Shown in pieces: positions 17,975 to 24,512 of a stretch of DNA of 64,000 nucleotides. Below the pieces are notes generated by a model. The model was not told the DNA's origin. It saw nothing but the letters and a program-made list of their open reading frames with translations, and ran no database searches. This DNA is from Centroscyllium fabricii (Eukaryota): the NCBI GenBank assembly GCA_051313645.2, contig JBNRSN020000011.1, positions 114,824,001 to 114,888,000 on the forward strand, read 5' to 3'. The position numbers were made by a program, and so were the translations under genes. The stretch's first letter is position 1; each line of letters begins with the position of its first letter.

Positions 17975-19893
17975 CAACAAACACATGTAGGGCGGAATTA
18001 GGCCGATACCCACTGATAATAAATATCCCAAAAAGAGTATTACATTTTTGGAATCACCTTAAATCTAGCCCCCAAGACTCCCTCCAGTTTAAAACCCTCC
18101 AAACCCAAGAGCGGAACCCAGAAGAGTCCCCTGTGTCAGTTGGTATTGAGACTAACTACCCCTACTCAGTCAAACCTTGACCAGTCTCAGATCAACACTG
18201 CTTTCCAAACACCAATTAGAGTGGACCAAATCATCAAAAAATGTAAAGAAACCTATTTGGAACATTGGGATAAAGCAACCAAAAACCAAAGCAGATTAGA
18301 ATGCTACCGTGCCCTAGAAAGAGATTATAAATTGGCAAACTATCTTTCAACTGTCAGAAATATAAAGCAGAGACAGACCCTCACCAGGTACAGACTAAGT
18401 GACCACCAGTTGGCAGTCAAAAAAGGAAGACAGAAGAAATCCTGGCAGCCAAGAGAAAATAGAATATGCGGTCACTGCTTGACAGATGAGGTTGAAACAG
18501 AGATGCACTTCCTCCTAAAATGCAAAAAATTCAACAAAACAAGGAGAACATACTTTGACAAACTAAGCCTGGAAATCCCAGATTTCAAAGAATTAGATGA
18601 TATCTTAAAACTAAAAATAATCCTTGGCGAGGGAGATAGGGCACAGCTTGGTGCACAATACGTAACAGCATGCCACAACCTGAGAGACAGTGAATGACCA
18701 ACATGCACACATGCACGCACACACAGGCAGAGACTGATCAACACTGATTAGAAACATAGAAACATAGAAAATAGGTGCAGGAGTAGACCATTCGGTCCGT
18801 CGAGCCTGCACCGCCATTTAATACGTTCATGGCTGAACATAAGAACACAAGAACACAAGAACACAAAAACACAAGAAATAGGAGCAGGAGTAGGCCAATC
18901 GGCCCCCCGAGCCCGCCCCGTCACCCAACAAGATCATTGCTGATCCTACCCTAACCTTCATACCACTATCACCCTTCTCCCACCCAAAGAACCATGTGAT
19001 CTCCTGGGAGAGGCGAAAAACCGGATAAAAACCCAGGTCCAATTTGGGAAAAAAAATCCAGGAAATTCCTCTCCGACCCCAATCCAGGCGATCGAAACTC
19101 GTCCAGGAGATCACTCAGGTCTTACTATACTAACCATAACTCAGGTCCACTTCCCTGCCCGCTCCCCGTAACCCCTAATTCCCTTGTCTGCTAAAAAAGT
19201 GTCTATTTCCGTTTTAAATTTATTTAATGTTCCCGCTTCCACAGCTCCCTGAGGCAGCGAATTCCATAGATTAACCACCCTCTGAGTGAAGAAGTTTCTC
19301 CTCATCTCAGTTTTAAAAGAGCCCCCCCCTTATTCTAAGACTATGCCCCCTAGTTCTAGTCTCCCCGATCATTGGAAACATCCTTGGCGCATCCACCCGA
19401 TCAAGGCCCCTCACGATCTTATACGTTTCAATAAGATCGCCTCTCATTCTTCTGAACTCTAAAGAGTAAAGTTCCAACCTACTTAACCTTTCCTCATATG
19501 TCAACCCCCTCATCACTGGAATTAACCGTGTAAACCTTCTCTGCACTGCCTCCAGAGCAAGTACATCCTTTCTTAAGTATGGACACCAATTGTTATACTG
19601 TTTGAAACTGCATTTAAACTATATATCTATTGATATTATTACTGATGCTGTTGTATATATTCTGTTAGTACTGTTGTTATTACGTCTATTAATGTACTAT
19701 TTTTGTGTATATTACAATGCTTTGGCAACAACGGTTGATACAATTCATGCCAATAAAGCTATTTGAATTTGAATTTGAATTTGTATGTCTAGATCTGCGT
19801 CTGTGTTCAATTGTATATGTCCTTTTTCTGTGCTTTGGCAACATAAGATGCGTCTTGTCATGCCGATAAAGCAATTTGAATTGAATTGAATGG
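17975..19893 (+). mobile_element. RTEX-like LINE 3' end, interrupted by CR1
   Basis: RAELGRYPL; LTRYRLSDHQLAVKKGR...RICGHC...ETEMHFLLKC zinc-finger; two similar tails catgcc(a/g)ataaagc followed by ttgaa-type repeats at about 19745-19890. Confidence 0.65.
18750..19590 (-). mobile_element. CR1 3' fragment with compound tails and a structured 3' UTR module
   Basis: [23 protein letters not shown]; stacked tails at 18750-18900; module at 18996-19114. Confidence 0.85.
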
Positions 19894-19899
19894 TGTTTA

Positions 19900-20600
19900 A
19901 TGGACGGTGATTGGTTTCTGTCTCCTCCTGATGCGAGTCCCAGGGTGATAGGCGGGGTGTGGGAGGCGGTGAGCCCTCCCTGCCGGTGGTCCTGGGCAGG
20001 CCAGGCGGAGGGCGCTTTGTTTCGATCCATTGCGGTAAGGAAGGGGCGGCGCCGGAGCTGCTTTCGCCGCAGCGTCTCCATTCATTCATTGATTCCTGCA
20101 GGTGGAAATGAGTGATCGGCAGACACTGAGCCCCGGCCCACCCACCCACACCAACCGCGGGGAGATGTGCAGCCCCGAGAGTCGGGCTGGCGGCCAGCAC
20201 CACTACAACTAGCCTGGCTTAACTGGACCTAATCCTTTTAGAATTATCTCTCTATATATATCTTCTGCTGCTATGGAGGAAAGTGCGAGCGAATCGCTGC
20301 CGGATCTGAAGGATTTGGAGAACAAGGTGGGACGGAAGACGCCCGAAGGTTTGCTGCGCTGGCTGCGGGAGGACACGGCTCGGCCCGCCGGGGACAAACT
20401 GGACCATCCCGGGCCGAGCGGCGAGCAGGCGGCGCCCGTTTGCGGGGCCGGCAACAGTCCGGGGAAGAGGCTGCCTGAGGGGCTGGCGGAGAAGATCCGA
20501 GTGCTGAGGCTGGACATGGTGAGTGAGAGAGGAGGGAGGGAGGGGGCGCTTTATTTACAGTATAAAGGTGCCCGGCTCGCTTGTGCAGGTATTTTAGAAA
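19900..20600 (+). promoter_or_regulatory. CpG island / probable promoter and first exon of LURAP1
   Basis: CpG-dense, non-repeat sequence with GC boxes (ggggcgg) around the start codon. Confidence 0.65.
20273..20518 (+). CDS. LURAP1: Leucine rich adaptor protein 1 (LRAP35a), coding exon 1
   Basis: MEESASESLPDLKDLENKVGRKTPEGLLRWLR...AEKIRVLRLDM matches the LURAP1 N-terminus; phase-0 donor ATG|gtgagt at 20519. Confidence 0.93.
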
Positions 20601-20859
20601 TACTGGGGGGCCAGGCTGTGATCTCATTTCTATTTATTTACCTTGGCCACACCGCCCACCTGTACACACAGCCTCCGGGGGAAAGTGAATCCGGAGTTTG
20701 ACATTTGCTGTCCTGTCTTGTCGGGAGCACTGACTTTAACCCCTGGGTGTGCAGACCTGCCAGGCGAGAACTCGCCAGCTGTCGGCTTCACCTTTCGTTG
20801 CATTTGTCTCCGGTCCACAGCTGATTAAAACCGCAGCCCAGAGTGCAGCAGGGGCGGGG

Positions 20860-21510
20860 AACAGTAATGGAGAGCGTGTGAGTGAGAGTGTGTGCCAGAG
20901 ACTGAGTGGGGGATAGTAATGCTGAGTGAGTGTGTGTGTGTGTGAGAGAGAGAGAGTGGGGGATAGTAATGCTGAGTGTGTGAGAGTGAGTGTGTGTGTC
21001 AGAGAGTGAGTGTGGGATAGTAATGCTGAGAGTGTGAGTGTGGGATAGTAATGCTGAGAGTGAGTGTGGGATAGTAATGCTGTGAGTGTGAGAGTGAGTG
21101 TGGGATAGTAATGCAGTGAGTGGGGGATAGTAATGCTGAGAGAGTGAGTGTGGGATAGTAATGCTGGGAGTGTGAGTGAGTGTGGGATAGTAATGCTGTG
21201 AGTGTGGGATAGTAATGCTGTGAGTGTGAGAGTGAGTGAGGGATAGTAATGCTGTGAGTGTGGGATAGTAATGCTGGGAGTGTGAGTGAGGGATAGTAAT
21301 GCTGGGAGTGTGAGAGAGTGAGTGTGGGATAGTAATGCTGTGAGTGTGAGAGTGAGTGTGGGATAGTAATGCTGTGAGTGTGAGAGTGAGTGTGGGATAG
21401 TAATGCTGTGAGTGTGGGATAGTAATGCTGGGAGTGTGAGTGAGTGAGGGATAGTAATGCTGGGAGTGTGAGAGTGAGTGTGGGATAGTAATGCTGAGTG
21501 TGTGAGAGTG
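20860..21510 (+). repeat. Minisatellite (gggatagtaatgct plus a variable GA/GT spacer) in LURAP1 intron 1
   Basis: About 20 copies of gggatagtaatgc separated by (gt/ga)n spacers. Confidence 0.95.
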
Positions 21511-22261
21511 TTGTAACAGGAGCTTCCCGCGGGCAGTGTGAGCAGCCCAGACCGGTTTTGCGGCTCTGAGGAAAGGCGAGCATTGCTCCACTCCTCCCCT
21601 GCCAGGCTCCGCGGTTCCTGCTGCTAAACAAAGCGCCGATGCACCCGGCCTGGTTGCATTTAAAACAGACGCGGTTGCTACCTGAGTGACATTAACCCTT
21701 TCATCTATTGGAGGTTTGTTTGTCATCCCCGCCCCCCCCCCCCCCGTTGAAAATCACGGAGGCCCGGGTGATTAAATGGGCCAGCACTTGATGCCAAACA
21801 GTGACCGGACCGGCCAAGGCTCCCCCCCCCCCCCCCGATACCAGTGCTGGGCTCTCGGCCATCCTTGGCGTGTGGTCTCCTGTAATTTTGCAACTTGCTA
21901 TAATAGTGAGGCTGCTTTCACTCCTTGTTATTGGACCGAGTTCGCGACGTTTGAAAGCGATTGCATTCATCAAGTCGGAGCTGATGGGTAGTTTTTTTTA
22001 ATGTTGCAAATGCGTCTTTAGTTTCTTTCTGTTGGAAGATTGCCTAATTTTGCAGTGGCATTGCTAGAGTTGGTCTAGTAACGCAGCACTTCTTCATGTT
22101 TCTGGCCCCCTTCAGAATGAAATTCAGCCGAAACATATGGATGATTTAATAGCAGGTGCATGAGTAAATTAACTAAATCGTATGGATCAGCTTTTTTTTA
22201 AAATCCATTCTTTTGCATATTAGGTCATATTATGCTGGCGAGGGCGGGATTCCCTTTTTGC

Positions 22262-22954: not shown

Positions 22955-24512
22955 TACATAAGAAATAGGAGCAGGAGTAGGCCAATCGGCCCCTCGAGCC
23001 TGCTCCGCCATTCAACAAGATCATGGCTGATCTGATCCTAACCTCAATTTTATTTTTACTCTCCATCCCGCCCAAACCCATGTGATCACCCGGGAGAGGC
23101 GAAAAACCAGATTAAAAAACCCAGTGGCCAATTTGGGAGAAAAAATCTGGGAAATTCCTCTCCGACCCATCTAGGTGATCGAAAACTGGTCCAGGAGATC
23201 ACATGGCCGATCTGAACCTAGCCTCACGTCCACTTACCTGCCCGCTCACCATAACCCCTAATTCCCTTTACTTCCAGGAAACTGTCTATCTCTGTTTTAA
23301 ATGTATTCAATGTAGTAGCTTCCACAGCTCTCTGGGGCAGCAAATTCCACAGCCTCACCACCCTCTGAGTGAAGGAGTTTCTCCTCATCTCAGTTTTGAA
23401 ATGGCAGCCCCTTATTTTAAGATTATGCCCTCAGTCCTAGTTTCACCCACCATTGGGAACATCCTCACCACATCCACTCGATCAAGCCCTCTCAATCTTA
23501 TATGTTTCAATAAGATCGCCTCTCATTCTTCTGAACTCCAATGAGTAGAGGCCCAATCTACTCAGCCTCACATCATATGTTAGCCCCCTCATCCCCGGAA
23601 TTAACCTAGTGAACCTTCTTTGCACTGCCTCGAGAGCAAGTATGTCCTTTCTTAAATATGGATACCAGAACTGCACGCAGTACTCCAGGTGTGGTCTCAC
23701 CAATACCCAGTACAACTGCAGCAAGACCTCCCTGCTTTTATACTCAATCCCCTTAGCAATAAAAGCCAACATTCCGTTGGCCTTCCTGACCACCTGCTGC
23801 ACCTGCATATTAACTTTTTGTGTTTCCTGCACCAGGACCCCCAGATCCCTTTGCACTGAAGTACTTTCCAGTTTCTTTCCATTTAGATAATAACTTGCTC
23901 TATTATTTTTCCTGCCAAAGTGCATAACTTCACACTTTCCAGTATTATACTCCATCTGCCAAATCTCTGCCCACTCACTTAGCCTATCTATGTCCTTTTG
24001 CAGGTTTTTAATGCCCTCCCCACTCATCACCCTCCCTCCCATCTTTGTGTCATCCGCAAACTTTGATATGTTGCACTTGGTCCCTTCTTCCAAATCATTA
24101 ATATAGATTGTAAAGAGTTGGGGTCCCAGCACCGACCCTTGCGGAACACCACTAGTGACTGACTGCCAGTCTGAGAATGAACCATTTATCCCAACTCTCT
24201 GTTTTCTGTTAGAAAGCCAATCCTCCACCCATGCCAGAATATTACCCCCAACCCTGTGATTTTTTATCTTGAGTAATAATCTTCTGTGGGGCACCTTGTC
24301 AAATGCCTTTTGGAAGTCCAAATACACCACATCCACTGGTTCCCCTTTATCCACCCTGTATGTTATGTCCTCAAAGAACTCTAGCAGATTTGTCAAACAT
24401 GACTTCCCCTTTGTAAAACCATGCTGACTTTGTCCTATTAAATGATGTTTATCCAAATGCCCTGTTACTGTTTCCTTAATAATGGATTCTAACATTTTGC
24501 CAACCACAGATG
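22955..24512 (-). mobile_element. CR1 LINE RT portion with structured 3' UTR module
   Basis: Long open frame with QHGFTKGKSCLTNLLEFF, YLDFQKAFDKVPH, GVPQGSVLGP and KFADDTK; module at 23078-23206. Confidence 0.92.

Follow-up and report, generated by a model that had tools for sequence, protein, structure and literature searches.

Comparison of copies and lineages indicates that a 119-nucleotide module, which in CR1 LINEs sits between the ORF2 stop codon and the terminal tail, is a conserved and selected RNA secondary structure, and modelling of its shape and place makes it double-ENE-like and a candidate member of that class of elements. The window, as we call the whole 64,000-nucleotide stretch of Centroscyllium fabricii DNA analysed here, holds two copies of the module, at 18996-19114 (-) and 23078-23206 (-), and the host genome measures 7.2 Gb.

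All stems of the original prediction, which had noticed both copies, were found again by sequence inspection and folding. On the sense strand the module lies 120-160 nucleotides 5' of the tail repeats and, in copy 2, about 125 nucleotides from the 3' end of the element. Minimum free energies were -50.2 kcal/mol for copy 1 (z -3.55) and -53.1 kcal/mol for copy 2 (z -4.67), and none of 200 shuffles was equally stable; since the reverse complements, which represent the plus strand, fold equally well (z -4.61 and -4.49), the strand is not decided by energy alone. When the whole 3' UTR was folded, the module formed a fold of its own, distinct from the hairpin that terminates the tail, and a covariance model search of the 64-kb window matched these two copies only. 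The copies are 81.5% alike, and both belong to 5'-truncated CR1 elements that carry the module in the 3' UTR. As had been predicted, the other CR1 tails of the window lack the module; we listed 12 such CR1-type tails, the second tail of copy 1 included. The CR1 tail found here, which we take to be of the HER1 type, would presumably fit a cartilaginous fish rather than a turtle or an amphibian.

The element carrying copy 1 (lineage A) extends over 18749-19589 (-) and comprises, as judged from alignments to other copies and from its ORF2 remnant, the ORF2 end, a 3' UTR with the module, and two tails. Its ORF2 stop codon (19141-19143 (-)) is separated from the module by a spacer of 26 nucleotides; sequence and lineage comparison place the first tail, with many A-to-G differences, at 18835-18945 (-), and sequence, folding and alignments place the second, which bears a separate terminal hairpin as well as short repeats, at 18749-18834 (-). 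The element of copy 2 runs from 22956 to at least 24520 (-) and contains a reverse transcriptase domain (RVT_1, E 1.9e-25), the 3' UTR with the module, an AAUAAA-bearing spacer and a terminal hairpin, the latter parts being recognized by alignments and folding. Module copy 2 belongs to lineage B1 and occupies 23082-23202 (-) by folding and covariance model, its outer stem extending to 23078-23206.

Folding, alignment and the covariance model describe the module as a three-way junction that bears a hairpin interrupted by two U-rich internal loops. In copy 1 (all coordinates on the minus strand), the 12-bp outer stem pairs 19103-19114 with 18996-19007, as also found by lineage comparison, and is followed by a single-stranded linker and by a side arm, GAUC/GGUC (19075-19093), which in the ancient lineage described below ends in a loop of the C(UUCG)G type. 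The side arm of the original prediction was a different one, obtained when copy 1 is folded by itself. The lower stem, GAGAGG/CCUCUC (19068-19073 with 19008-19013), has a 5' strand that is identical in eight of eight lineage majorities. Above this stem, ensemble folding shows a lower internal loop, AAUUUC/UUUUUCG (19062-19067 opposite 19014-19020), then a 6-bp middle stem (19056-19061 with 19021-19026), an upper internal loop of U6-7 opposite U5-6 (in copy 1, U7 at 19049-19055 opposite U5 at 19027-19031, an ENE-like core by descriptor and ensemble folding), and the upper stem CCCA/UGGG with its apical loop (19032-19048). Each of the four strands that make up the internal loops is rich in U, a telling feature that was absent from the earlier description. 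The apical hexamer AAUUGG (19036-19044), invariant across all eight lineage majorities, shows complementarity to a segment of the terminal hairpin, and the letter concerned is correlated between loop and hairpin (128/129 vs 5/114), which probably reflects one ancestry.

In the genome, an 18-mer from the 3' outer arm had 68,759 exact matches, a core motif of the copy 2 type 30,379, a lineage A motif 14,037 and a lineage C2 motif 2,769; controls gave 0 in every case. In 664 kb sampled by position, the window included, modules numbered 8 and tail motifs 65; of the modules, 6 lay in the 600 kb beyond the window. Most CR1 copies are devoid of the module, which is an accessory gain and not essential. 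We sorted 160 distinct module sites; lineage sorting set aside 24 that were ERV-borne and 13 that were partial, and assigned the 123 whole CR1-type modules to lineages A, B1-B3, C1, C2 and D; because 60 of the sorted loci had been picked for having escaped earlier patterns, variant lineages are over-represented. Copies diverge from the majority of their lineage by 1.4-5.6% (10% in D, with 3 copies), and C2, at 1.4%, is the youngest lineage. One diverged match led to an ancient LINE lineage, E, which also carries the module and is represented by 42 module-spanning copies that differ by 24% from their own majority, the sample having been drawn as the best 40 of 715 candidates. Among public sequencing runs, 14 of 24, under four organism labels, contain at least half of the module words, and contigs span the module in four of four runs and additionally in three of four RNA-library runs, such contigs being no proof of transcription, strand or 3' ends. 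Metagenome collections gave 45 pattern matches, none of them homologous to the module, and viral collections gave 0 pattern matches.

The notion of a selected RNA structure, put forward by the original prediction, is backed by the divergence of the module relative to its flanks and by changes that keep its pairs. Between lineage A and lineages B1 and B2, the module differs by 4-6%, the flanking spacers on both sides by 31-48%, the tail by 13% and the ORF2 end by 14-15% (module vs other segments, Fisher p 0.0002-0.01), so that both adjoining flanks are 5-8 times more diverged than the module. Between E and lineages A and B, the module differs by 13-19% and the flanks by 30-46% with many gaps. 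Among the 31 pairs, we counted three two-sided, three one-sided and one broken change in E vs A (p 0.0011), two, four and one in E vs B2 (p 0.0026), one, one and none in A vs B2 (p 0.038), and one, one and one in A vs B1 (p 0.11), where p is the chance of so few broken pairs when equal numbers of changes are placed randomly in simulation. Because these comparisons share ancestry, they amount to three independent double changes, two of which fall in the middle stem; the one-sided changes pass via G-U wobble on the sense strand. The E majority is noisy at two key pairs (G-C in 15/42, U-A in 18/42), and part of the E sample was selected by a motif that contains one key-pair letter.

Two compensatory changes had been claimed between the window copies. 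The exchange of G-C for A-U stood up as a true lineage-level double change (G-C in 20 and A-U in 51 of 92 rows), but that of U-G for C-G turned out to be one-sided, a minor CpG-type variant present in 4 of the first 100 lineage A matches listed and in 1/23 of the lineage sample. In an alignment of 95 copies, 94% of cells pair and 22 cells are two-sided, nearly all of these being one event; a result of 0 of 500 shuffles reflects one inherited change and was not counted as significance. RNAalifold retained only the outer and lower stems in the 95 decayed copies, and since MAFFT places lineage A one column off in the upper stem, upper-stem pairs were counted by script. The three-way junction, the side arm and the apical hexamer are conserved in eight lineages, C2 included.

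An ENE is a hairpin in which a U-rich internal loop beside G-C pairs binds poly(A) as U-A-U triples, according to passages of the reviews PMC7583470, PMC13541005, PMC8704770, PMC12707130 and PMC6379651, in which the double form has two such loops. The U7/U5 internal loop of copy 1 has the stem-loop form of an ENE. Ensemble folding predicts unpaired U-strands, all four of them, at 0.8-1.0 in lineages E, A, B1-3 and D but not in C1, and the lengths of the U-runs were kept from ancient E to the young lineages. Two C-G pairs stand above both loops in A, B and D, in agreement with the G-C pairs of ENEs; the C-G above the upper loop was lost in C1 and shifted in C2. Below the upper loop, a G-C pair lies two pairs down (directly below in E). 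The two loops with a short duplex between them have the layout of a double ENE, the lower 5' strand holding only three U's; under the lower loop, AA faces CG, and this part can be drawn with a bulge next to two A-U pairs. A descriptor for ENEs, which was composed after the module had been seen, matched copy 1 only in the window, gave 0 matches in 120 window shuffles and 1 in 5000 module shuffles, and matched 23 of 95 copies in sense vs 0 of 95 in antisense.

As far as described in the parts available of the ENE literature, TWIFB1 (the dENE of a rice hAT element) and other plant and fungal transposon dENEs likewise consist of a hairpin with two U-rich loops and a short duplex between, TWIFB1 also sharing the C-G pair above the upper loop and U5-A on the 3' strand; plant and fungal dENEs and the ENE of Evade are likewise found in the 3' UTR of intronless mobile elements. 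In Evade, the loop U's and the flanking G-C pairs are needed for the triplex, and deletion of the ENE led to less RNA and fewer insertions (PMC12501189, in the sections available). The module differs from dENEs in its host, a vertebrate non-LTR LINE whose copies contain no poly(A), in a middle duplex of 6 bp vs 10 in the dENE as far as excerpted, and in its lower loop AAUUUC/UUUUUCG, its mounting on a three-way junction and its fixed apical hexamer. Its lower domain has no match to the letters of TWIFB1 in Table S1 of PMC10855403, the part of that paper which lists the PAN and TWIFB1 ENE sequences. Against the same table, 11 nucleotides of copy 1, GGUUUUUAUCC (19023-19033 (-)), recur letter for letter on the 3' strand of the PAN ENE of KSHV, with which the upper domain further shares a 5' strand of CUGG/CCGG, U-run and CC. 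The PAN ENE is a single domain in a viral noncoding RNA, whereas the module has two loops and resides in a LINE, and the pair directly below the loop is G-C in the PAN sequence of that table, with U-A and A-U, then G-C, in the module. MALAT1 and MEN-beta, in the descriptions available, likewise have a vertebrate U-rich loop element above a purine/pyrimidine stem; unlike them, the module has no conserved encoded A-rich third strand, no tRNA-like processing signal was seen in it, and its loops are free of a C/G-register interruption. A search of the literature available found nothing joining ENEs or triple helices to CR1 or vertebrate non-LTR elements, a text search for the module motifs retrieved two unrelated listings and no relevant paper, and the part available of PMC13343379 mentions a UTR once and no ENE-like element.

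Taking this likeness together, we lean modestly towards the reading that the module acts as a double-ENE-like clamp on poly(A) which would raise the level of the LINE RNA. The LINE RNA would be polyadenylated at or beyond its tail, the poly(A) would fold back and thread the U-rich loops as U-A-U triples, and the clamped poly(A) would resist deadenylation, with the consequence that the intronless LINE RNA would accumulate and carrier LINEs would make more copies. Reverse transcription would still prime at the tail repeats, as suggested by stringent LINEs (PMC3747384, in the part available), so that the DNA copies would contain no poly(A). What we infer here is the triple helix, that the LINE RNAs have a poly(A) tail and where it lies, and the benefit to the carrier. 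Among the three functional options of the original prediction, its 'stability element' is the best backed, and that earlier interpretation is, as a whole, partly supported.

Several observations weigh against a clamp. None of the copies has a poly(A) end, no A10 run lying within 170 nucleotides 3' of the module (0/240 matches), and an encoded A-rich third strand, like AAUAAA, is not common to all lineages. AAUAAA occurs 3' of the module in 50/54 copies of B1, B3, C1 and C2 and in 0/69 of A, B2 and D, and its use would remove the CR1 tail. The lower loop, moreover, is non-canonical, its 5' strand having three U's only. In C1 and C2 one middle pair is broken and the upper stem is whole in 4/12 and 0/8 copies, respectively; the C1 majority folds differently in ensemble folding, and the ORF2 frames of C1 are largely open (2 stops in 3/6 long copies). 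C2 has lost the upper stem, yet it is the youngest lineage and has its 2,769 matches, which counts against the clamp. Both C1 and C2 gained a fourth U in the lower loop, which could represent a shift to one domain. The outer stem, the side arm and AAUUGG are conserved yet lie outside known ENEs, and the two-sided changes, being only three, are few; both points speak against the clamp as well, as do the scarcity of the module relative to tail motifs, the noise in the E majority, and the origin of the ERV copies in one capture at a distance of about 1 kb from the poly(A) signal of the LTR.

The module was also captured by an endogenous retrovirus. The CR1 3' end is present in 30 of 30 sampled copies of one ERV family (413 genome matches to an env-region motif used as a marker of family size), and the whole module in 29. 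The captured piece lies in sense orientation inside the env region, about 600 nucleotides 5' of the 3' LTR, which puts the module about 1 kb 5' of the poly(A) signal of the LTR. All copies share one 3' junction, and 24 of 30 bear a later deletion that stops about 13 nucleotides before the module. In the long form, the 5' junction repeats the last bases of the LTR, and the arrangement is as expected of an acquisition by read-through capture of flanking DNA. Each ERV copy carries on average 8.8 changes in the tail behind the module (6.2 of them A-to-G) and 4.1 in the module (0.04 A-to-G), with one ancestry for both; the copies represent one capture, and retention of the module may be a founder effect. 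A-to-G changes pile up in CR1 tails that are no longer terminal, namely in the ERV-borne copies and in the first tail of lineage A, a pattern that hints at ADAR editing made permanent by reverse transcription.

The ERV bears on an alternative that we regard as rather unlikely, albeit the strongest of those considered, namely that the module is a protein-binding cis element serving nuclear export, LINE particle packaging, or stabilisation via a U-rich-RNA-binding protein, with the junction and the apical AAUUGG as the recognised parts. Export elements (CTE, RTE, MTE) are known in env-less retroelements. Such an element would work without poly(A), would serve both a LINE and an env-interrupted ERV distant from the poly(A) site, and would account for the junction, side arm and hexamer being kept in all eight lineages, including C2. 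It leaves unexplained, however, the four facing U-runs, the loops closed by C-G and the PAN-like strand, and Rfam contains no matching family. The poly(A) clamp remains the reading that we prefer.

The distribution of the module among CR1 elements shows that it passed from an older LINE lineage to several CR1 bodies. In E, the carrier is another element of the CR1 group, with a distinct ORF2 end and tail, and the module comes after its ORF2 stop; a donor-type upstream piece related to E was found in 12 copies. Among these, composite copies have the module 255-256 nucleotides (3 copies) or 87-88 nucleotides (3 copies) behind the first CR1 tail, and two retain a tail of the old type. The first tail abuts the module directly, with 0 nucleotides between them, in lineage B, and in lineage A the junction between tail and module has other letters. 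The B3 bodies are 75-76% like copy 2 with a nearly identical 3' end, the switch lying near the ORF2 end. Rather less confidently than the clamp itself, and at somewhat below even odds, we propose that a poly(A)-clamping dENE on a three-way junction might be a long-standing stability cassette that vertebrate CR1-group LINEs can trade, ancient in origin, captured with 3' ends onto unrelated CR1 bodies and an ERV, and trimmed to its edges each time; this would imply that LINE RNAs with microsatellite tails receive poly(A) and are held in check by deadenylation.

The same exchanges could be read as those of a once-functional or neutral hairpin hitchhiking on successful CR1 tails, its conservation stemming from recent transfer or gene conversion. 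Most CR1 elements do without the module, C1 and C2 multiplied while it decayed, lineages swap tails, and a founder effect may lie behind its retention in the ERV, all of which would suit a passenger. We nevertheless consider this improbable, given a module 5-8 times less diverged than its immediate flanks, two-sided changes across E, A and B, deletions in both CR1 and ERV that end at the module edge, and an ERV tail that has accumulated about twice the changes of the module (8.8 vs 4.1 per copy) over one ancestry.

Flanks were determined for 214 whole modules: LINE sequence was found on both sides of 203, the tail only in 6, the 5' flank only in 4 and neither in 1, this single module without LINE flanks by the motif test resembling the donor lineage; 5' cuts inside the module are scattered over 8 places (model positions 35-80). 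A three-way junction and a 12-bp terminal inverted repeat might recall a ribozyme or a MITE, but a self-cleaving ribozyme, a stand-alone MITE or an RT recognition hairpin, all raised by the original prediction, is very improbable, given that no Rfam family matches over the module at E up to 1, no hammerhead core was found, cleavage at the module would be expected to remove the tail needed for priming, LINE sequence on both sides of 203/214 modules and scattered 5' cuts do not fit a MITE, and most CR1 tails (8 modules vs 65 tail motifs in 664 kb) do without the module and a separate terminal hairpin lies 3' of it. These three candidates were, taken together, largely refuted by the flanks, Rfam and the separate hairpin. 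The 3'-terminal stem-loops of HER1/HE1 and UnaL2 are likewise structures in the 3' UTR of CR1-group LINEs (PMC3747384, in the part available); a hairpin of that type is present separately 3' of the module, which is itself optional.

If the double-ENE-like clamp works as proposed, the ENE class would be extended to a vertebrate non-LTR LINE with some 70,000 copies, and RNA stability would be a trait exchanged among retroelements as a cassette. It would also bear on how the 3' ends of CR1-type RNAs, the copies of which terminate in short repeats, are finished, and the ancient, intact young and decayed C1/C2 forms constitute a natural variant series.

Two other features lie close to the CR1 copies in the window. 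An open stretch of 224 codons at 18023-18697 (+) has a translation that presumably resembles the C-terminal end of the ORF2 of another LINE. Between the two CR1 copies, at 20213-20701 (+), there is an open frame, GC-rich and about 160 codons long, that has a likely splice donor and no Pfam match; it probably represents a coding exon belonging to a host gene, and it adjoins an array of tandem units of about 30 nucleotides at 20900-21520.
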